A DNA stretch of 64,000 nucleotides from an uncultured Chloroflexia bacterium (GTDB lineage: Bacteria > Chloroflexota > Limnocylindria > QHBO01), in assembly GCA_963837425.1 (NCBI GenBank), contig CAWINH010000002.1, positions 599,129-663,128 on the forward strand, in the 5' to 3' direction. Positions 15,399 to 32,387 of the stretch are shown here, in pieces; the stretch's first letter is position 1, and each line of letters opens with the position of its first letter. The notes beneath the pieces were generated by a model. The model saw only the letters and a list, made by a program, of their open reading frames with translations, was not told the DNA's origin and did no database searches. The position numbers and the translations under genes were made by a program.

Positions 15399-17933
15399 AT
15401 GGGCCTGGGCGCCATTGCCTGGCGGAGCCTGGCGGCCCGGCCACTGCGCACCGGGCTGACGATCGCCGGGATCGCACTGGGGGTGGCGATCGTGGCCGCC
15501 ACCCTGCTCGCCAACCAGGCGTCGGCGAGCGCGCTGGAGCGTGCCGCGCAGGAGCTGTTCGGACGGGCGCAGCTGCGGGTGCGCGCGTTCAACGACGTGG
15601 GCTTTGATCCGGCAAACGTGAAGCTCATGCGCCAGCTGCCCGGCGTCCTGAACGCGGCGGCCGTGATCGAGAAGCCGGGCACGGCGATGAGCACCGCCCC
15701 GGGTCCCGACGAGCAGGTCTTCACGATGCTGGCCATCGGGGTCGACCCTGCCGATGAGATGCACATCCGCGACTGGGATCTCGCCGATGGCAGCTTCCTC
15801 GACGCGGGGGCCACCGACGAGGTCCTGGTAACCGCCACCTGGGCCCGCGATCACCACCTCGGGTTGGGCGACGAGCTGCTCCTGAACACGACGGGCCTCC
15901 CGCACTGCACGATCGTGGGGCTCCTGAACCCGACCGGGTTCGGTGCGCTGGCGTCCGGCAATGTCGCGGTCTTCGACCGCGAGTTCCTCGCCGGCGCCTT
16001 CGACGTGACGCCGCCTATCCGCTACGTGGACCTTCAGATCGGGCCGGGACAGGAGGCCGCGGTCCAGGCGGGCCTCGACGCCACCCTCACCGATCCCTTC
16101 GTCGTCGAGACCGCGGCCGACGCGGCCGTCCAGCTGGGACGCGCGCAGGCCGGTTTTGCGGGTCTCGCCTTCCTGTTCGGCGCGGTCTCGCTGGCGGTCG
16201 GCGCCTTCCTCGTGGCGAACACCCTGTCGATGACGGTTGCCGAACGCACCCGGGAGCTGGGCCTCCTGCGGGCCGCGGGTACGACCAGCCGCCAGATCAT
16301 GGGCTTCGTCCTGCGCCAGGCGGCGGCCCTGGCGGTGATCGGCAGCGTCGCCGGGATCCTGCTGGGAATCGCTGCCGCCACGCTGATGATCGCCTTCCTG
16401 CGCACGACGCGGGCGCTCCTCATCGAGGGGGTGCCCTGGAATCTCGGGTCGCTCGCCCTGGCGAGCGCCATCGGCGTGCTGGTAACGCTCGCCGCTGCCG
16501 TCATCCCGTCGATCGCCGCGTCACGGGTCTCGCCACTCGACGCCCTGCGGCCCTCGCGGCTGCCCGGCCGCTCCCTTGGCGGCCGGCTGCGCTGGATCGT
16601 CGCCTTCGTGGCCCTCGCCACGCTCGTCGGCGGATTCCTTTACCCGCTGGACCGCGGTGATGCGTCACCCATCGGGGCGCTCGTCGCCGTCGCCATCCTC
16701 GTTGCCGCCACGGTCCTGGTGGCCGCGATCCTGCAGCCCGCAGCGCGGCTCGTCGGTCGTCCGTTCGAGGCGTTCTTCGGCGCAGAGGGGATGCTCGGTC
16801 GTGCGAACCTCGGGCGCCATCGGGTGCGAACCGGCCTCACCGTCGGCGCGCTCGTCATCGGCCTCGCGACGGTCGTGGCGCTCGGGGCAGTCTCGGCCAG
16901 CGCGCGTGCCACGGCGCAACGGTGGGTGGACTCGATCCTCCCGAGCGGGCAGGTGTTCCGGATCTCCGTGGCTCCCGACGCCGGCCAGGCGCCAGGCTAT
17001 CTCATGCAAATCGGGGGGATCGCCGCCGCCAGCCCGATCATCGAGTTCCCGGCGGTGATCGCCGGCGACCAGGCTCCGACCGAGGTCTCGATGGCCGGGA
17101 TCGACCCCACCGTCTACCAGGATGCCGGCGCGCTGATCTTCATCCAGGGCGACCGGGCGGCGGCCTTCCAGGCGCTCCGCGCTGGCGGCGCGGTGCTCGT
17201 GCCGGATGGGATGGCGCAGCGCGATGGCCTGGCGCCGGGCTCCACGCTGCCGCTCGCCACGCCGGGCGGGGAGATCCACCAGTTCCGCGTCGTCGGTGTC
17301 ATTGCCTACACCCTGCCCGCGCGCTCGCCGGACGGCGCCATGCTCGTCAGCCTCTCCGACGCCCGCGACCGGTTCGGCGCCACCACGGCCCACCTGTGGG
17401 CCCTCATTCCGCGTGACGGGACCCCGCTCGCCGGCTTCCGCTCCGCGGCGAGCGGAGTGGCATCCGAGCAGGGAGGCGAGCTGCTGACGACCGAGCAGCT
17501 CGGCGAGGAGCTCGGGCTCGGGCTGGATCGGCTCATTGGCCTGTTCGACGTCCTCGCCCTGTTGGCGGTGCTCATCGGCGGGCTGGGGATCGTGAACACA
17601 CTGACGGTCGGGGTTGCCGAGCGCAGTCGCGAGATCGCGATCCTGCGCTCGCACGGGATGACCGTGGGTCAGGTCCAGGCCATGGTCGTCTCCGAGGCCT
17701 CGATCATGGGCGCGGTTGGCGGACTGGCGGCGGCCGCGGCGGGGATGCTCGTGGCGTGGGTGGCGGTGACGTTCGCCACGCCTGGCGACTTCGGTGCCGG
17801 GCTCGCCGTCCCGTGGCCGCTGCTGGCGGTCGTCGTGCTGCTCGGGATCGGAGTTGCCTCGCTCGCAGGAATCTACCCGGCTCGGCGAGCCGCGCGTTCG
17901 CCGATCACCAACGACCTGCGCCACTTCGAGTAG
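15399..17933 (+). CDS. ABC transporter permease with two FtsX domains (YbbP/MacB-like)
   Basis: 844 aa with duplicated TM bundles and large extracytoplasmic loops. Lies 4 nt after the ATPase gene. Confidence 0.85.
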   Translation: MGLGAIAWRSLAARPLRTGLTIAGIALGVAIVAATLLANQASASALERAAQELFGRAQLRVRAFNDVGFDPANVKLMRQLPGVLNAAAVIEKPGTAMSTAPGPDEQVFTMLAIGVDPADEMHIRDWDLADGSFLDAGATDEVLVTATWARDHHLGLGDELLLNTTGLPHCTIVGLLNPTGFGALASGNVAVFDREFLAGAFDVTPPIRYVDLQIGPGQEAAVQAGLDATLTDPFVVETAADAAVQLGRAQAGFAGLAFLFGAVSLAVGAFLVANTLSMTVAERTRELGLLRAAGTTSRQIMGFVLRQAAALAVIGSVAGILLGIAAATLMIAFLRTTRALLIEGVPWNLGSLALASAIGVLVTLAAAVIPSIAASRVSPLDALRPSRLPGRSLGGRLRWIVAFVALATLVGGFLYPLDRGDASPIGALVAVAILVAATVLVAAILQPAARLVGRPFEAFFGAEGMLGRANLGRHRVRTGLTVGALVIGLATVVALGAVSASARATAQRWVDSILPSGQVFRISVAPDAGQAPGYLMQIGGIAAASPIIEFPAVIAGDQAPTEVSMAGIDPTVYQDAGALIFIQGDRAAAFQALRAGGAVLVPDGMAQRDGLAPGSTLPLATPGGEIHQFRVVGVIAYTLPARSPDGAMLVSLSDARDRFGATTAHLWALIPRDGTPLAGFRSAASGVASEQGGELLTTEQLGEELGLGLDRLIGLFDVLALLAVLIGGLGIVNTLTVGVAERSREIAILRSHGMTVGQVQAMVVSEASIMGAVGGLAAAAAGMLVAWVAVTFATPGDFGAGLAVPWPLLAVVVLLGIGVASLAGIYPARRAARSPITNDLRHFE

Positions 17934-26563: not shown

Positions 26564-28009
26564 ATGCCCCAGCGATTGATTACCGGTCTGGACGGCGGTA
26601 CTCGTGACGTTGCCGCGGAGACCCTCGACGCCCTCGCGGCGAGCCTGGACGGCTCGCTGCTGTACCCCGGGGACGAGGGATTTGCCGAGGCGACCAGCCT
26701 CTGGAACGGGATGATCACGAAGCAGCCGGCCATCGTGGTTCGGGCCGGGTCAACGCAGGACGTGGTGCGAACCGTCGACTTCGTCCGTGACAGCCAGCTC
26801 GAGCTGTCGATCAGGGGAGGTGGGCACAACATCGCGGGGTTAGCGCTGACCGATGGTGGCGTGACGCTCGACATGTCGGGGCTCACCGATGTTCACGTGG
26901 ACGTGGATGCCAGCGTGGCGCGGGTCGGCCCGGGCTGCACGCTCGGCGATGTCGACCGAGCCACCCAGGAACATGGGCTGGCTGCGACCTTCGGCTTCGT
27001 CTCGGCGACCGGCGTAGCAGGGCTGACCCTTGGCGGAGGGTTCGGCTACCTGAGCCGTCGCTTCGGTTGGACGATCGACGACCTGCAGGAGGTGGAACTC
27101 GTGACCGCCGATGGGGCCGTGCGTCGCAGCTCGCGCCTCGAGAACCCCGACCTCTTCTGGGCCCTCCAGGGCGGGGGTGGCAACTTCGGCGTCGTGACGG
27201 AATTCGTCTTCAATCTGCATCCGGTCGGCCCCAATGTGATGGCCGGCCTGATCGCGTGGCCGGCCAGCGAGGCCGATGGTGTTCTCGATCTCTTCAAGCG
27301 GGTAACTGCATCGGCGCCCCGCGAGTTGACGCTCGCCGTCCTGATGCGCAATGCGCCTCCCGCGCCGTGGCTTCCCCAGGAAGCCCATGGCACGCCGATC
27401 ATCGCCATGGTCGCGTGTCACTCAGGCAGTCTCGACCAGGCGCAGGCGGACCTGGCCCCGATCAAGTCTCACGCGCGTCCACTGGCCGATCTGGTACAGG
27501 TGAAGCCGTATGTCGCCCAGCAGTCCATGCTCGACGCGACGCAGCCCAAGGGGATGCACTACTACTGGAAATCCGAGTTCCTGCCGAGCCTGAGCGACGA
27601 GGTCCTGGAAACATACAAGGCGCAATTCATCGACAACAAGGCACCCGCAAACCAGATCGTCTTGTTTCACGTTGCGGGGGCGCCGAACGATCATCCGGAG
27701 GACGACGGAGCGATGGGTAACCGCGATGCCGCCTTCGCCTGCGTCATCCAGGCGATGTGGGCCAAGGGAGACCCCGCTGGTGATGCGCATCGGGCGTGGG
27801 TGCGCACGGCATGGGAGGCGCTGAAGCCGTACTCCACCGGCGGCAACTACGTGAACTTCCAGACCGAGGACGAGCCGGACGCTCGGACGGCCGAGTCCTA
27901 CCGATCGAACCTCGAACGCCTCGCAGCGGCGAAGACGACGTACGACCCGTCGAATCTATTCCGCGTCAACCGGAACATTCGCCCTAGCTCAACCGCTGCA
28001 AGTAGGTAG
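26564..28009 (+). CDS. FAD-linked oxidase (FAD_binding_4 plus BBE-like C-terminus)
   Basis: 481 aa with RGGGHNIAG, GGGFGYLSR, and the C-terminal YDPSNLFRVNRNI BBE-type motif. Confidence 0.85.
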   Translation: MPQRLITGLDGGTRDVAAETLDALAASLDGSLLYPGDEGFAEATSLWNGMITKQPAIVVRAGSTQDVVRTVDFVRDSQLELSIRGGGHNIAGLALTDGGVTLDMSGLTDVHVDVDASVARVGPGCTLGDVDRATQEHGLAATFGFVSATGVAGLTLGGGFGYLSRRFGWTIDDLQEVELVTADGAVRRSSRLENPDLFWALQGGGGNFGVVTEFVFNLHPVGPNVMAGLIAWPASEADGVLDLFKRVTASAPRELTLAVLMRNAPPAPWLPQEAHGTPIIAMVACHSGSLDQAQADLAPIKSHARPLADLVQVKPYVAQQSMLDATQPKGMHYYWKSEFLPSLSDEVLETYKAQFIDNKAPANQIVLFHVAGAPNDHPEDDGAMGNRDAAFACVIQAMWAKGDPAGDAHRAWVRTAWEALKPYSTGGNYVNFQTEDEPDARTAESYRSNLERLAAAKTTYDPSNLFRVNRNIRPSSTAASR

Positions 28010-28023
28010 ATCTCGTCTTCGCG

Positions 28024-28118
28024 GCGCTGTGCGACAATGCGGCGTCCATTTTTCTGCTCTGTTTGAGCGTGAAGCGCGCGCCCGTAGCTCAGTGGACAGA
28101 GCGGGTGGCTTCGGACCA
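28024..28118 (+). repeat. direct repeat copy 1: tRNA-Arg upstream region plus tRNA 5' half (28078-28118), truncated after the anticodon loop
   Basis: GCGCCCGTAGCTCAGTGGACAGAGCGGGTGGCTTCGGACCA matches 40 of the first 41 nt of the intact tRNA at 32312 (T instead of C at 28093). About 55 nt upstream is also conserved. No T-arm or 3' acceptor strand follows. Confidence 0.85.
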
Positions 28119-28183
28119 AATCGGCTGATGCGCTGTGGTTCGAGCGTGAGCTTCCGAACGAAACGGGTCGAGTTATCCGCTGT
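28119..28183 (+). repeat. conserved 65-nt extension X1 following truncated tRNA copy 1
   Basis: 48/65 ungapped identities with 29533-29597 by my count. This includes the blocks GATGCGCTGTG and CGAAA(C/T)GGGTCGAGTTATCCGCTGT. Absent after the intact tRNA. Confidence 0.7.
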
Positions 28184-28247
28184 GTCGTAGCGCCGATGGG
28201 ATGCATACCGCCGTGATGTCCAGCACCTGCCGCTGGCCTGCGACGGC

Positions 28248-29258
28248 CTATGTGCTGCGCCGCCCGCGACGCCGGCTTCGCTTGTAGGCCGTGACATCGC
28301 GCTTCGTTGAGTACCAGAGCCCGTCCTGGTGAGTCGCCCGCAGTCGACCGGCTTGTGCGGCCCTCCGAAGCGCCAGCAGGCTAAGGTCGCGATCCGCGAG
28401 CGCCGACAACGGCAGCAGCCGATGTGGGCCTGCGAGGGCCGGCAAGAGGAAGCGGTCCAGTCCGTCCTTGACCGCTCGCGCAAGAAGTTCAGCGAGAGAC
28501 CCTGCGTTCCCTGCATCGGCCCGGCGGAGCGCTGCCAAGTACCGGGGCCGGTCCCGTTTGTAGATGACGGCGGGCGCATATCCTCGCCGGACGAGCAGCA
28601 GGTTCAGGGCCAGGCGACCCGCACGGCCGTTTCCATCACGGAACGGGTGGATCTGCTCGAATCGAGCATGGAGTCCAGCGAGGTGCTTCATGAGGTGCTG
28701 CCCGTCGCGCGGCGCCGCATTGGAGTCCCGGATCCAGTCGGTGATGAGCGCGTGGACGTCGGTGAACGGGGGAGGCTGCATGCCACTGGGGAACGCGGCG
28801 ATGTCGTGCAGGCGGAAGGACCCCGGACCTTCGCCGGGGGCCAGTTGCTCCGGTGGCTGCACCTTCCACACCCCCTCGATCAGGGTCCGGTGGATCTGTC
28901 GCAATTCAGTGATCGTGATGTGGTTGCTCGGCGCCCAGGCCACTGCCTTCGTTGCCTGTTCATACACCCATTCAGCGGCTTCCGCGTACCCTTGGACCTC
29001 GAGGTACTGGGCGAGTTCTTCGTTGCCCACCGCACGTCCCTCATCGAGCAGGAGCCGCACCTGCTTCAGCACCAGCGTGTTTCCCTCGATCGCGGTCGAG
29101 TTATGCGCCTCCTCGTACCAGATGCCCTTCCAGATGTCGCGTGCCTCGAACGGCGCTGGCAGGCCGCCGATACGGCGGAGCTCGTCGATCTCCCGATCGA
29201 CTGCTTCGAAGATGGCTGTGCGCGTCGGTCGGCCACGGTGTGGCATTTCGATCGCCAT
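28248..29258 (-). CDS. Fic-family protein (AMPylase-type), with intramolecular inhibitory motif
   Basis: Active-site HPFRDGNGRAGR. N-terminal STAIEG matches the (S/T)xxxE(G/N) inhibitory helix. 336 aa. Confidence 0.9.
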   Translation of the reverse strand: MAIEMPHRGRPTRTAIFEAVDREIDELRRIGGLPAPFEARDIWKGIWYEEAHNSTAIEGNTLVLKQVRLLLDEGRAVGNEELAQYLEVQGYAEAAEWVYEQATKAVAWAPSNHITITELRQIHRTLIEGVWKVQPPEQLAPGEGPGSFRLHDIAAFPSGMQPPPFTDVHALITDWIRDSNAAPRDGQHLMKHLAGLHARFEQIHPFRDGNGRAGRLALNLLLVRRGYAPAVIYKRDRPRYLAALRRADAGNAGSLAELLARAVKDGLDRFLLPALAGPHRLLPLSALADRDLSLLALRRAAQAGRLRATHQDGLWYSTKRDVTAYKRSRRRGRRST

Positions 29259-29259
29259 T

Positions 29260-29357
29260 GGAATTCAGTACGCCTAACGGGAAATATTGGGATCGTACTG
29301 AAGTCTAGTACCAGTTCGGTACGAGCGCGTCAAGAGAAATCGACCGTACCGAATTCC
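29260..29357. promoter_or_regulatory. GTAC-rich symmetric array bounded by a 12-bp inverted repeat, immediately upstream of fic
   Basis: GGAATTCAGTAC (29260-29271) versus GTACCGAATTCC (29346-29357), 11/12 complementary. Five GTAC tetramers at 29268, 29295, 29308, 29319 and 29346 give spacings of 27/13/11/27. Locally AT-rich. Confidence 0.4.
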
Positions 29358-29437
29358 CCTCGACTGGTCGATTGGCTGGGCAGCGGTCGAGCGTGACATG
29401 TCAGCGGAAGGCGTACACCGACAATACCGCTCGTCGA

Positions 29438-29532
29438 GCGCTGTGCAACAATGCGCCGTCTGGTTTCCCGCTCTGTTTGAGCGTGAAACGCGCGCCCGTA
29501 GCTCAGCGGACAGAGCGGGTGGCTTCGGACCA
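29438..29532 (+). repeat. direct repeat copy 2: tRNA-Arg upstream region plus tRNA 5' half (29492-29532), truncated
   Basis: The 41-nt tRNA part is identical to 32312-32352. The upstream ~55 nt differs at only 3 positions from copy 3 over the last 73 nt. Confidence 0.85.
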
Positions 29533-29597
29533 AGAACCTCGATGCGCTGTGCTTCCACCGTAGGCACGCGACCGAAATGGGTCGAGTTATCCGCTGT
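29533..29597 (+). repeat. conserved 65-nt extension X2 following truncated tRNA copy 2
   Basis: See X1; same length and same conserved blocks. Confidence 0.7.
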
Positions 29598-29951
29598 CGC
29601 GCCGGATTCCTCCGTACAGGGTGTTGCAGGGACTGTCGTAGCGTTCGTGGCAGCCGACGGACCGTACCGCCGCCGCGAGCCAGTCAAGCCAATCGGAGGA
29701 CCCAGGTTCCATCGCTACCTCGGTCGCCCCGTGCAATTCCGTCAACAGTTCAGGCTCTTCGGCACTTCCTATTTGACAGTAGGTGCCAGATGCTACGAGT
29801 CCGCGACGGCCCGCGGGTGGCCGAACCGCGGCGTTGGTGTCCTTCAACTCCGGCTTTGGTCGGTGGACGTCACCGCAGTGCTCTCGCGTCTAATGGGAGG
29901 TATGATGAGACGCCCAGCATCTTTACACAGTCCCCGCCAATCAGGCCTCGA

Positions 29952-30830
29952 ATGCTGGCGACTGCCCTGACAATAGCCCTGGTATCAAGCCTAACAATCG
30001 GGGCTGTCTATGCCCTAGCAAGCGACCCCAGTGTTGCCACCACCACAGGCGGCGGGTCGGACTCGGACAGGGGGAAGATCCTGCCGCTAACACCCGAACA
30101 ACAAGTCATCCTTGACCAGAAGATGGCGGAGTTGCGCGCCATGGAGGACGCCTTGGCCTGGGGGGATGCGCCCGGCCCGATCGATGGCCCGGAACCGCTA
30201 CCCTCCCCACACCCCAGTAGGGTTCTTCCAACGTACCCTCGCCACCAGTACCGGTACTTCTATTGTGGCCCTGCTACCGTCCAAGTGGCGTCCAACCTGA
30301 GTTGGGATTACTACTACTCCTCGACGAGCGGTGAAACGGGCGCGACGAACAAGCACAAGCAGACCACCATCAGCGCCACCTGGACGCACACGAACAGTAG
30401 TGGCACAACCGACGTCAACATGGTCGCCGGCATGAACGGCGCGAGCCACCTTCCATACACGCCGTTCTACTTCAAGTGGTCCAACCCGGTGTTCCAGGAT
30501 TTCCACAACGCGATCATCATGGACACCGATGGATACGGCATGGCGCTAGCCGTCCACGTCAACCCGCGCGACACGGTGAACGGGAACTACTACCTTCCCA
30601 ACTGGGCGGGGGTGGACCCGAGCTCCGGCTACGGGCACTACATCGCGATCAACGGCTATTCAGGGCTCTACAGCGACCCCGTCCGGTGGGCCTACTACGA
30701 CGATTCATCGGGCGGGGTTGACGAGTACGACGGCCACACCGTCATCCTCGGCTCGACTGGGGCCTACCGCTATGGCAGCTATGGCCTCTGGGAGACGATG
30801 AGAAATGGGAACAACTACCTGATCTGGTAG
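29952..30830 (+). CDS. secreted papain-fold cysteine peptidase-like protein (C39-like)
   Basis: Hydrophobic N-terminus. Gln-x5-Cys in HQYRYFYCGPATV (papain-like Gln/Cys spacing) and His in GHYIAINGY. The ATG at 29952 has no SD. A strong GGGAGG-N1-ATGATG at 29895-29907 lies in another frame, so the true start may be 29902 with a 1-nt frameshift near the CCCC run at 29932-29935. Confidence 0.65.
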   Translation: MLATALTIALVSSLTIGAVYALASDPSVATTTGGGSDSDRGKILPLTPEQQVILDQKMAELRAMEDALAWGDAPGPIDGPEPLPSPHPSRVLPTYPRHQYRYFYCGPATVQVASNLSWDYYYSSTSGETGATNKHKQTTISATWTHTNSSGTTDVNMVAGMNGASHLPYTPFYFKWSNPVFQDFHNAIIMDTDGYGMALAVHVNPRDTVNGNYYLPNWAGVDPSSGYGHYIAINGYSGLYSDPVRWAYYDDSSGGVDEYDGHTVILGSTGAYRYGSYGLWETMRNGNNYLIW

Positions 30831-30838
30831 GGCTCACA

Positions 30839-32026
30839 TTGAAGTCTGTCGGCCCCGCTCTGGGCGCGATCCTGCTCCTCGCCGGGTGCGTAACCCCCAG
30901 TCCGCCCCCGACGGGGATCCCATCTGACACCCCGCGCGCTTCGCAAAGGTCGATCGGTCCGTCGGGTGCGCCATCAGAGGCACCGTCGTGGCTGACCACG
31001 GGGGCCATTGACCAGAAAGACACCACCCCTGCCCTGGCCTATACGAGTACCGGGAAGTACTTGGTGTGGTCGTCTGGTGTCCGGCTCGGGCCGTCGGCCC
31101 AACTGGCGCCCGATCTGTTTGGCTCCACCCCCGGCGGTCCTGTCCAGTTGCTCTACGACAACCCAAACCGGGGCTCCGAGCTCCGTCGGATCGTGGGCGA
31201 CGGTAATCAGCTCGCCTTTGTCGAACAGAACATCGGGGTCTTGGGCCTCGGAGGCTGGACGTTGTGGTACGTCCCCAGTCCAGGCACCGATGCCATCGAG
31301 ATCGACCACGGGGTTATGACTGCACTGCCCGACATCGCCCTCGGCGGCAAGTGGCTGGTCTGGATGTCGGCCCCGGGTGAGGACAGCCAGCTGCTGGCCA
31401 TGGACCTGACGACCATGACGCGCCGCGAGCTGCTTGCGAGTCCGGCCCTCGAGACCCAGTACTGGCATCCCGCCGTCGATGGCGACCGGCTCGTATACGG
31501 CACCGTCGAGATGAGTCCCGACGGCCGCAGCGACGAGCGCCACATCTACCTGTTGGATCTGGCCGACTCCGGCGAGCCAGAGCGCCTCGATCACAGCACC
31601 TCCGCCTCCGAGCCCGCCATCCACGGCGATGACGTGATCTGGAAGGAGTCAGACCCGCGGCTCAACTTCGTGGTGAGCGGCGGCATCGTGCACTACGACC
31701 TGCGGACCGGCGCGAGCGAACCATTGCGAATGATGCCCGGCCCTCAGCCCGAGATCGACGGGTACCCGGCGGGGTGGATGCTGCCGAGCATCGGGAACCG
31801 CTACGTGGCGGCTTGGTCGGATTCCTCCAACGGCGACCGGACGATGTACCTCGCCGATTTCCGCACCGGCGACCTCCTCCAGATTCTTGACTTGGGCCCC
31901 ACTGACGAAGCCCCGCATAACGTCGCCGTGCGACCGGAGCTGTCGGGCGACCTGCTGGCCTATGTCTTCGCTCCCGCCGATGGCGACCTGGAGCTGCGCT
32001 GGATTCGCATTGGCGCTGGCCCCTGA
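30839..32026 (+). CDS. lipoprotein with repeated beta-strand (TolB/beta-propeller-like) architecture
   Basis: TTG start, lipobox LLLAGC. Recurrent motifs of the type G..LV(W/Y)...D....IY..DL across 395 aa. Confidence 0.55.
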   Translation: MKSVGPALGAILLLAGCVTPSPPPTGIPSDTPRASQRSIGPSGAPSEAPSWLTTGAIDQKDTTPALAYTSTGKYLVWSSGVRLGPSAQLAPDLFGSTPGGPVQLLYDNPNRGSELRRIVGDGNQLAFVEQNIGVLGLGGWTLWYVPSPGTDAIEIDHGVMTALPDIALGGKWLVWMSAPGEDSQLLAMDLTTMTRRELLASPALETQYWHPAVDGDRLVYGTVEMSPDGRSDERHIYLLDLADSGEPERLDHSTSASEPAIHGDDVIWKESDPRLNFVVSGGIVHYDLRTGASEPLRMMPGPQPEIDGYPAGWMLPSIGNRYVAAWSDSSNGDRTMYLADFRTGDLLQILDLGPTDEAPHNVAVRPELSGDLLAYVFAPADGDLELRWIRIGAGP

Positions 32027-32258
32027 AGGGCGGCTGGAGCCGACGAGGGAAACTCCGCCGGGCAGGTGAGGGAGGCGAGATCGGCGTGTTGCGTGGCTAC
32101 CGAAAGGTTCGCCGCGGCGCACATTCCCAGGTGAAACTGGTTGACGTTGGCGGCGAGGTCGCCGCGGGTTACGATAGCCGAGGCGGGGGAGGCTGACGAC
32201 AGCGCCGCGGGACTCCGTCCGACGGTTCAGAAGACGCGTCGGTCGTTCCGCTCTCATA

Positions 32259-32311
32259 ACGCTGTAGTCAATGCTGAATCTGGTTTTCCGCTCTCATTGA
32301 GCGTGAAACGC
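32259..32311 (+). repeat. direct repeat copy 3, upstream (promoter-containing) part preceding the intact tRNA
   Basis: Aligns with the equivalent parts of copies 1 and 2. TTCCGCTCTCAT occurs twice here (32247-32258 and 32287-32298). Confidence 0.7.
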
Positions 32312-32387
32312 GCGCCCGTAGCTCAGCGGACAGAGCGGGTGGCTTCGGACCATCAGGTCGCGGGTTCAAATCCTGCCGGGCGCGCCA
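32312..32387 (+). tRNA. tRNA-Arg (anticodon TCG), CCA encoded
   Basis: Manual fold: acceptor GCGCCCG/CGGGCGC, D-arm GCTC/GAGC, anticodon stem GGTGG/CCATC with loop CTTCGGA, variable loop AGGTC, T-arm GCGGG-TTCAAAT-CCTGC, discriminator G, CCA. Confidence 0.9.

Follow-up and report, generated by a model that had tools for sequence, protein, structure and literature searches.

A tRNA-Arg(TCG) gene probably rebuilt from its 5' side by successive integrative elements in an uncultured Limnocylindria bacterium

The window analyzed here is a 64-kb stretch of DNA (contig CAWINH010000002.1 of assembly GCA_963837425.1, from an uncultured Chloroflexia bacterium of the class Limnocylindria). It contains a tRNA-Arg(TCG) gene whose 5' half, together with its upstream sequence, occurs three times and brackets two short cargo segments. 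An earlier note, made from the letters of the window, had described this arrangement and had seen no recombinase in it. We consider it very likely that two decayed integrative elements, inserted into the tRNA gene one after the other, stand here in tandem. The orientation of insertion is unusual, as the element brings the promoter and the 5' part of the gene. Because intact members of the same family carry a Xer-like integrase beside the repeat, and the window keeps a stub of it, the missing recombinase is no longer a puzzle. The features of the region are collected in Table 1.

ARAGORN found tRNA-Arg(TCG) as the sole tRNA in the window, on the plus strand, and the Rfam tRNA model scored 64.9 bits for 32312-32387 with the other two half copies below threshold, confirming that only the third copy is a whole tRNA. 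The tRNA 5' half consists of 41 nt, GCGCCCGTAGCTCAG[C/T]GGACAGAGCGGGTGGCTTCGGACCA, and lies on the plus strand at 28078-28118 (one mismatch, T at 28093), 29492-29532 and 32312-32352, three matches where 100 shuffles gave an expectation of 0. In a repeat search the repeated unit measured 96 nt, its copies (28024-28119, 29438-29533, 32258-32353) lie 1414 and 2820 nt apart, and the triplication is therefore real. The recurring unit is made of tRNA nucleotides 1 to 41 plus about 55 to 100 nt of upstream sequence, and the 3' half of the tRNA is present after copy 3 only. The lengths of the enclosed segments (1,414 and 2,820 bp) and their cargo, a Fic gene in one and a papain-fold peptidase plus a lipoprotein in the other, were as the note had described, and so was their lower GC content (64.3% and 64.0%, compared with 69.9% for the whole window); GC at third codon positions is reduced for the Fic and peptidase genes. 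Copies 1 and 2 have about 67 nt more in common 3' of the half, at 28119-28185 and 29533-29599, with the core GGGTCGAGTTATCCGCTGT. Copies 2 and 3 had been called nearly identical, which holds across the tRNA half and the 15 nt preceding it and nowhere else, since over 96 nt copy 2 shows 90.6% identity with copy 1 but 85.6% with copy 3.

Homologs of the adjacent ABC-2 permease assigned the window to Limnocylindria (uncultured Chloroflexota) and led to three orthologous loci in relatives (L001, L002 and L003; loci of relatives are numbered with the prefix L). Position 16 of the tRNA is T in the displaced copy 1 and in the intact tRNAs of these three relatives, whereas it is C in the element halves and in the present working tRNA. 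Because the working gene has C16 as in the element rather than the T16 of the displaced half and the relatives, it appears from its sequence to be a chimera, to which element 2 contributed the promoter and roughly positions 1 to 38 and the chromosome the 3' part. The tRNA 5' half of element 2 is now part of the working tRNA. The proposal that the inserted DNA supplies its own upstream region and 5' half is supported. Copy 1 had been taken as the original chromosomal half. It is indeed older, with T16 like L001 to L003, but it may itself be the scar of a still older insertion, because motifs of the element right-arm type (GCGCTGTG ... TTCTGCTCTG ... GAGCGTGAAGCGC, within 28010..28077) already follow directly after the stop codon of a FAD/BBE oxidase at 28009.

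Table 1. Coordinates of the tRNA-Arg(TCG) region within the window.
Feature	Position	Strand	Basis or composition
Upstream (presumed promoter) region of the outermost half	28010..28077	+	Three-copy alignment; right-arm consensus of 20 cassettes
Displaced older tRNA-Arg(TCG) 5' half, positions 1-41, T16; attL-type junction of element 1	28078..28118	+	
Element 1, integrase-less Fic cassette, 1,414 bp, 64.3% GC	28119..29532	+	Left arm 28119-28185, Fic, right arm ~29417-29491, own tRNA 5' half 29492-29532
Left arm of element 1	28119..28185	+	25 cassette left ends aligned
Fic-domain protein, 336 aa	28248..29258	-	Pfam PF02661, E = 6.5e-17
Element 2, 2,820 bp, 64.0% GC	29533..32352	+	Left arm 29533-29599, papain-fold peptidase, lipoprotein, integrase stub, right arm ~32222-32311, tRNA half
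Predicted C39-like papain-fold cysteine peptidase, secreted or membrane-anchored, 292 aa	29952..30830	+	
Lipoprotein, 395 aa	30839..32026	+	Lipobox LLAGC
Pseudogene stub of the element's tyrosine integrase, ~45 N-terminal codons, frameshifted	32050..32257	-	
Intact, apparently chimeric tRNA-Arg(TCG)	32312..32387	+	ARAGORN, Rfam, C16

Species-representative genomes were scanned for the half without its tRNA continuation, which gave 20 stretches from 17 metagenome-assembled genomes (MAGs) of Limnocylindria/Chloroflexota. The number of units per tRNA-Arg(TCG) in the relatives ranges from 0 to at least 5. L003 has the tRNA without a 5' cassette; L001 has one half copy and different neighbors; L002 has three half copies around a Fic-B cassette followed by an extracytoplasmic function (ECF) sigma factor and Kelch cassette. 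The locus neighbors in these three are transporter and oxidase genes. L018 holds four truncated halves and an intact tRNA, with the cassettes Fic-A, Fic-B, VapBC and Fic-C, and L009, L008 and L020 hold at least five cassettes. Empty and alternative alleles, which the earlier note had proposed to look for, are thus present, L003 being the one without a 5' cassette and other sites carrying different cargo. The truncated halves of the window, L002 and the 20 stretches, 40-odd in number, all end in ...GGACCA at tRNA position 41 and continue into a conserved left arm. The cargo of the relatives includes three Fic types, a VapC/ribbon-helix-helix (RHH) toxin-antitoxin pair, a HicA-like/Phd pair, an ECF sigma factor with a Kelch anti-sigma-like protein, VIT1, an adenylate cyclase, a subtilase, an amidase and another C39-like peptidase. 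The three Fic cassette types at this locus are diverged (about 79% identity or less), and all three occur in L018.

Individual cassettes are shared between genomes. Element 1 of the window is 99.0% identical to cassette 1 of L018, which comes from another MAG, over the full 1,414 bp; the upstream flanks of L018 and the window agree at 97%, and the remainder of the L018 array differs. The Fic-B cassettes of L002, L009 and L018 show 99.4% identity, compared with 89.6% for the L002 and L018 flanks, and Fic-B stands first in one array and second in another. A three-cassette block is common to L018 and L009 at 99.3% identity and ends exactly at GGACCA, beyond which L018 continues into the tRNA 3' half and L009 into another cassette. 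Such a pattern would be expected if each new unit is inserted at the intact tRNA and the older ones are displaced outward. The earlier suggestion of successive insertions of related elements is supported, and the newest of them lies next to the intact tRNA.

Whatever their cargo, the 25 distinct cassettes that we aligned have a common 67-nt left end and a common right end of about 100 nt. The left-arm consensus is GA-AACCCCG.TGCGCTGTGC.T.CGAGCGTGG...GCCGA.C.AA...GG..CGAGTTATCCGCTGTC. When arms and bodies were counted separately, the arm motifs were essentially absent from the cassette bodies, and the motifs GCGCTGTG, GAGCGTG and TCCGCT(G/C)T occur as direct repeats in both arms. In several integrase-less right arms, 40 to 50 nt are homologous to the 5' end of the integrase gene. 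Regarding the left arm as a possible structured RNA or attC-like hairpin, RNAalifold gave a weak fold with zero covariation, and the only Rfam match was the tRNA. The motif (T)CCGCT(C/G)T(G), found in the right arms at 28055-28062, 29469-29476 and 32289-32296 and in the left arms at 28175-28182 and 29589-29596, is the reverse complement of the tRNA D-arm, namely of CAGAGCGG (positions 20-27) and CAGCGGA (positions 13-19). The attachment site therefore holds inverted partial copies of the D-arm, which RNAalifold paired without covariation and which may be either protein binding sites or partners in RNA pairing.

The absence of a recombinase, as claimed in the note, is correct for complete genes, as no integrase or transposase open reading frame lies within either segment; it does not extend to remnants, because segment 2 keeps a frameshifted integrase stub on the minus strand (32050-32257). 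Its start codon (CAT, 32255-32257) lies inside the right arm. The part at 32050-32175 matches the integrases of L020 and P0125 with 57-60% identity over 42-44 aa (tblastn, E = 4e-5 and 1e-5), and blastn also matched the stub to the integrase genes of L020, L027, L028 and L024. The translation reads IVTRGDLAANV..AANLS.ATQ..LASL.

Integrase-bearing versions of the element exist in the relatives. Cassette 3 of L020 (3.4 kb) contains a tyrosine recombinase gene that is truncated and has its start codon directly at the right end; some of its homologs have complete catalytic domains. L044 is a complete 7.8-kb element at tRNA-Arg(TCG), with an intact tRNA, an intact 341-aa integrase divergent from the tRNA, a Replic_Relax protein, MazF and VanZ, and its distal 5' fragment is broken at the same tRNA position as the window halves. 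L026, at tRNA-Pro(TGG), has the layout of L044, and identity there ends 3 nt into the 3' anticodon stem. L027 to L030, again at tRNA-Arg(TCG), carry intact integrases of 315-334 aa about 100 nt from the tRNA, and the tRNA sequence of L027 and L028 is that of the window. Across the 59 metagenome loci that could be assessed, the family integrase faces the tRNA 5' end in 50, at a median distance of 130 nt and with 13 tRNA species. The L027 and L044 integrases are composed of a SAM-like N-terminal domain (Pfam PF02899 or PF13495) and PF00589, with no extra arm-binding domain. Their translations show the motifs ARLSE, GKGxRER, HLFRHxYAH, GWRS and SRYA, which together supply the full R..K..HxxR..(H/W)..Y set of tyrosine recombinases. 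The best PDB match of the family integrase is XerD (1a0p). Its scores stay below the equivalog cutoffs of XerC (147 bits against 335) and XerD (135 bits against 330), so it is Xer-like and not XerC or XerD itself, and the NCBIfam integron-integrase model gave 42 bits against a cutoff of 265.

An 8.7-kb version at tRNA-Arg(TCG), L024, shares the layout of L044 and has a frameshifted integrase together with capsid and tail-tube genes. The phage capsid-family gene and the tail-tube-like gene lie at 15601-16746 of that locus. Because of these genes, which contrast with the Replic_Relax protein of L044, some elements of the family may be phage-derived or satellite-like. Neither of the window units showed hallmark genes for replication or packaging. 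When viral contigs were scanned for the truncated half, none matched, and the integrase relatives on viral contigs are distant, at 47% identity or less.

Based on these observations, we propose that the region was shaped by a small Xer-like tyrosine integrase, whose gene would lie at the tRNA-proximal end of the element and be transcribed away from the tRNA. The attachment site of the element would span about 210 bp, with a right arm of about 100 nt, tRNA positions 1-41 and a 67-nt left arm, and the right arm would have to hold a tRNA promoter. Recombination of attP with attB would take place inside the shared 41 nt. The anticodon loop is the probable place of the crossover, since at both the Arg and the Pro targets the identity reaches only 2-3 nt into the 3' strand of the stem. 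The promoter and 5' half of the element would be joined to the chromosomal 3' half, so that the tRNA would stay functional, and the old promoter and half would be moved to the far side. A second insertion into the regenerated tRNA would repeat the process and give three copies. Deletions at a later stage would presumably have left element 1 with no integrase and element 2 with about 45 codons of it, sparing the cargo and both arms.

Several observations weigh against this proposal. All the comparison data are metagenome assemblies. Neither a tyrosine recombinase catalytic domain nor an intact family integrase was found anywhere in the 64-kb window. A sigma-70 promoter scan of the three upstream regions predicted no site, and because of this the replacement promoter rests on necessity and conservation. 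Single-nucleotide polymorphisms (SNPs) in the halves (C16T, G28A) and at -5 (G/A) follow the host array and not the cassette in L002, L009, L018 and L020; therefore gene conversion or homologous recombination between the repeats is active, which indicates concerted evolution of the halves, and could explain part of the shuffling. As the SNPs are homogenized within arrays, their linkage between halves and cassettes gave no crossover position. Finally, an integrase trace is recognizable in 2 of about 26 distinct cassettes, and this absence is cleaner than random decay might predict.

The last point leads to a possibility that we hold tentatively, namely that the integrase-less units are stable non-autonomous cassettes moved in trans by an integrase encoded elsewhere or on a visiting element. 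This would extend the proposal of decayed tandem elements rather than replace it, and the tRNA-Arg locus would then be an integron-style cassette platform. Both arms are conserved across 25 distinct cassettes with their motifs almost absent from the bodies, and units of 0.86-1.4 kb are 99-100% identical across arrays, positions and species-level MAGs, the similarity breaking off precisely at the half. No integrase trace is seen in 24 of 26 cassettes, and with its toxin-antitoxin pairs, Fic and ECF sigma factors the cargo is similar to what chromosomal integron arrays carry. However, neither an excision product, nor an empty-site polymorphism within a population, nor a resident intact integrase has been demonstrated in the array-bearing genomes; the 40-50 nt of integrase homology in several integrase-less right arms fit decay, and if a larger piece was exchanged by homologous recombination, this could account for the en-bloc sharing of three cassettes. 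The rarity of integrase traces, together with the retention of both arms in all cassettes, suggests that trans-mobilizable cassettes of the cis-mobilizable element (CIME) type, considered below, fit at least as well as simple decay, and the integrase-less units of the window are possibly still movable.

It is also conceivable, although we regard it as somewhat unlikely, that the present shuffling of units is mainly RecA-type homologous recombination, with the repeats of about 100-200 nt serving as portable homology and site-specific recombination responsible for the founding insertions only. The homogenization of the half and -5 SNPs within arrays is a gene-conversion signature, and the three-cassette block common to L018 and L009 as a unit is in line with such exchange. 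In contrast, the arms stay linked to their own cargo in every context seen, and more than 40 junctions fall at one nucleotide position, indicating a site-specific origin. The first capture of new cargo would not be explicable by homologous recombination either.

An old local tandem duplication of the tRNA promoter and 5' half, followed by divergence and with no mobile element, would account for the direct repeats and for the approximately 160 nt that copies 1 and 2 have in common. We reject it as very improbable: the variable alleles in the relatives contradict it, with 0 to at least 5 units of unrelated cargo and identical cassettes in other genomes, and integrase-bearing versions as well as an integrase stub exist. 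The chance of an assembly collapse or misjoin at a repeated tRNA is practically negligible, for although repeats of about 100-200 nt can break short-read assemblies and many related contigs end at the repeat, the window lies on a 682-kb contig and identical architecture and junctions recur in independent assemblies from different projects, on contigs of 74-807 kb.

The earlier note had found no described element class for this pattern, a statement that does not stand, since tRNA islands with 5' fragments have been cataloged (PMC4383910) and stacking with decay corresponds to the tycheposon model (10.1101/2020.12.28.424599). In the Islander catalog, which covers tDNA islands with an anticodon-centered attP, 159 of 3,919 islands have a 5' tDNA fragment; it contains 125 tandem arrays, only 4 of them with three or more members, and requires an integrase and a length of 2-200 kb (Hudson, Lau & Williams 2015, PMC4383910). 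This makes the architecture a minority class that is already known and not a new one. Like the Islander islands, the region reads as tyrosine-integrase elements in a tRNA gene that is regenerated by element sequence, arranged in tandem, with an intact tRNA at one end and, upstream of the gene, same-orientation fragments that start at position 1. In contrast to them, the window units have no integrase and would fail the Islander filters. Only the stub of about 45 codons is left in the window, whereas L044 and L027 to L030 do carry an integrase, and of the two lengths only that of element 2 (2,820 bp) lies within the accepted range, element 1 (1,414 bp) being too short. Further differences are the arrays of at least 5 units and the short Xer-like integrase in an uncultured class of Chloroflexota.

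The tycheposon model holds that Prochlorococcus tRNA islands grow by the stacking and decay of integrase elements (Hackl et al., 10.1101/2020.12.28.424599). As in the window and its relatives, insertion takes place at the island-proximal tRNA, older elements are pushed outward with partial tRNAs between neighbors, fragmented integrases and stray partial tRNAs mark decay, and cargo-bearing as well as capsid-bearing forms exist (here L024). The phylum differs, and the integrase lineage probably differs too; this comparison covers the island-growth model. Within Chloroflexota, the Dehalococcoides ssrA islands are likewise described as tandem insertions at a single-copy small-RNA gene with direct repeats of part of the gene, and differ in lying at the transfer-messenger RNA gene ssrA and not at a tRNA gene (McMurdie et al. 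2011, PMC3146451).

CIMEs, known from the accretion-mobilization of streptococcal integrative and conjugative or integrative and mobilizable elements, are flanked by att sites, lack recombination and transfer genes and lie in tandem with integrase-bearing relatives or descend from them, as the units do here, and they have been proposed to move with an integrase supplied in trans (PMC5704250). In the present case the arms are conserved with respect to the integrase-bearing L020 cassette 3, L024 and L044, and the window units contain no recombination or transfer genes. The target differs, being the 5' part of a tRNA gene and not the 3' end of a protein or tRNA gene. No conjugation or mobilization partner was identified for window-type units, and a Replic_Relax protein was found only in L044.

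The likeness to chromosomal integrons lies in a one-sided array of small cassettes that is rich in toxin-antitoxin genes, in conserved recombination-site ends, in a newest cassette beside the primary site, in a tyrosine recombinase and in an upstream promoter that reads into the array, which here would be the displaced tRNA promoter. Unlike in integrons, no intI lies beside the primary site, the cassette genes stand in either orientation and family members carry their own integrase; the arms are direct repeats and not attC imperfect inverted repeats, and RNAalifold found no conserved covarying hairpin. The array is thus not an integron, because it has neither an adjacent intI nor attC-type sites. 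A more far-reaching idea, which we consider unlikely as a whole, is that the Limnocylindria tRNA-Arg(TCG) is an integron-like platform. A clade of arm-less, Xer-like integrases specialized for the 5' side would act in trans on integrase-less cassettes of 0.9-3.4 kb, each bounded by a composite site of about 210 bp, so as to capture them, stack them and pass them between species, and the displaced promoter-bearing halves would transcribe into the cassettes behind them.

The proposal of successively inserted and decayed elements explains a puzzling repeat without a new element class, and it implies that the promoter and 5' half of a working tRNA gene can be swapped repeatedly by mobile DNA. What appears to be new is the lineage, the consistent 5'-side habit of the integrase clade across many tRNAs, the length of the arrays and how small the cassettes are. 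The integrases, small and Xer-like, form a coherent clade that sits on the 5' side of at least 13 tRNA species, a rare orientation for tRNA-targeting elements, and arrays of at least 5 mini-cassettes, some of them 99-100% identical across species-level genomes, are found in a widespread uncultured soil class, with Fic proteins, toxin-antitoxin pairs, ECF sigma factors and secreted peptidases as cargo. If the units are indeed trans-mobilizable, they would form a second, independent cassette-array system beside integrons, with a compact pair of recombinase and site.

As for the cargo of the window, the Fic protein (28248-29258, minus strand) shows the canonical active-site core HPFRDGNGRAGR in its translation, and upstream of it an S-T-A-I-E-G motif that resembles the inhibitory helix by which class II Fic enzymes auto-inhibit themselves. 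An exact-sequence look-up of this protein matched no record. A Pfam search of the 292-aa protein itself gave no match, and 19 of its 48 homologs match Peptidase_C39_2. Q99, C105 and H229 are invariant, and AlphaFold2 with a 48-sequence alignment reached a predicted local distance difference test (pLDDT) score of 86, compared with 37 for an unusable single-sequence model. The top Foldseek matches of the model in the PDB are all papain-fold proteins, cathepsins and Der f 1, and the homologs, the invariant residues and the model together show the protein to be a C39-like papain-fold peptidase. The 395-aa lipoprotein has no Pfam match; it gave weak, sub-threshold NCBIfam matches to beta-propeller and TolB models and is probably a beta-propeller. 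A search for an integrase-bearing ancestor of element 2 through homologs of this lipoprotein yielded none, as the homologs stand in ordinary chromosomal contexts (e.g., a nuo cluster) with no integrase.

The seemingly empty site in the relatives looks like an older insertion scar, because a left-arm-like motif, GGGTCGGGTTTTCCGCTGT, lies about 95 nt upstream of the tRNA in L003 (12150-12168) and L002 (14944-14962, minus strand). At nine nt before the tRNA, the 'native' upstream region of these two loci also contains a -10-like TACAAT. Some relatives have insertions on the 3' side of this tRNA-Arg(TCG) as well, a classical kind. In L003 (10997-12009) a second copy of the final 16 nt of the tRNA is found 982 bp downstream, and the two enclose a gene for a 245-aa lipoprotein; in L023 (3482-7322, tRNA orientation) the stretch from the T-arm to CCA occurs twice, 2.8 and 3.8 kb downstream, each time after a conserved motif of about 28 nt. 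No integrase was evident at the 3'-side repeats of L003 and L023, and 3' tRNA repeats of this kind are absent from the window. Part of a Mutator-family (IS256-like) transposase is present at 33-629 of L008, in one of the long cassettes of the L008/L020 array.

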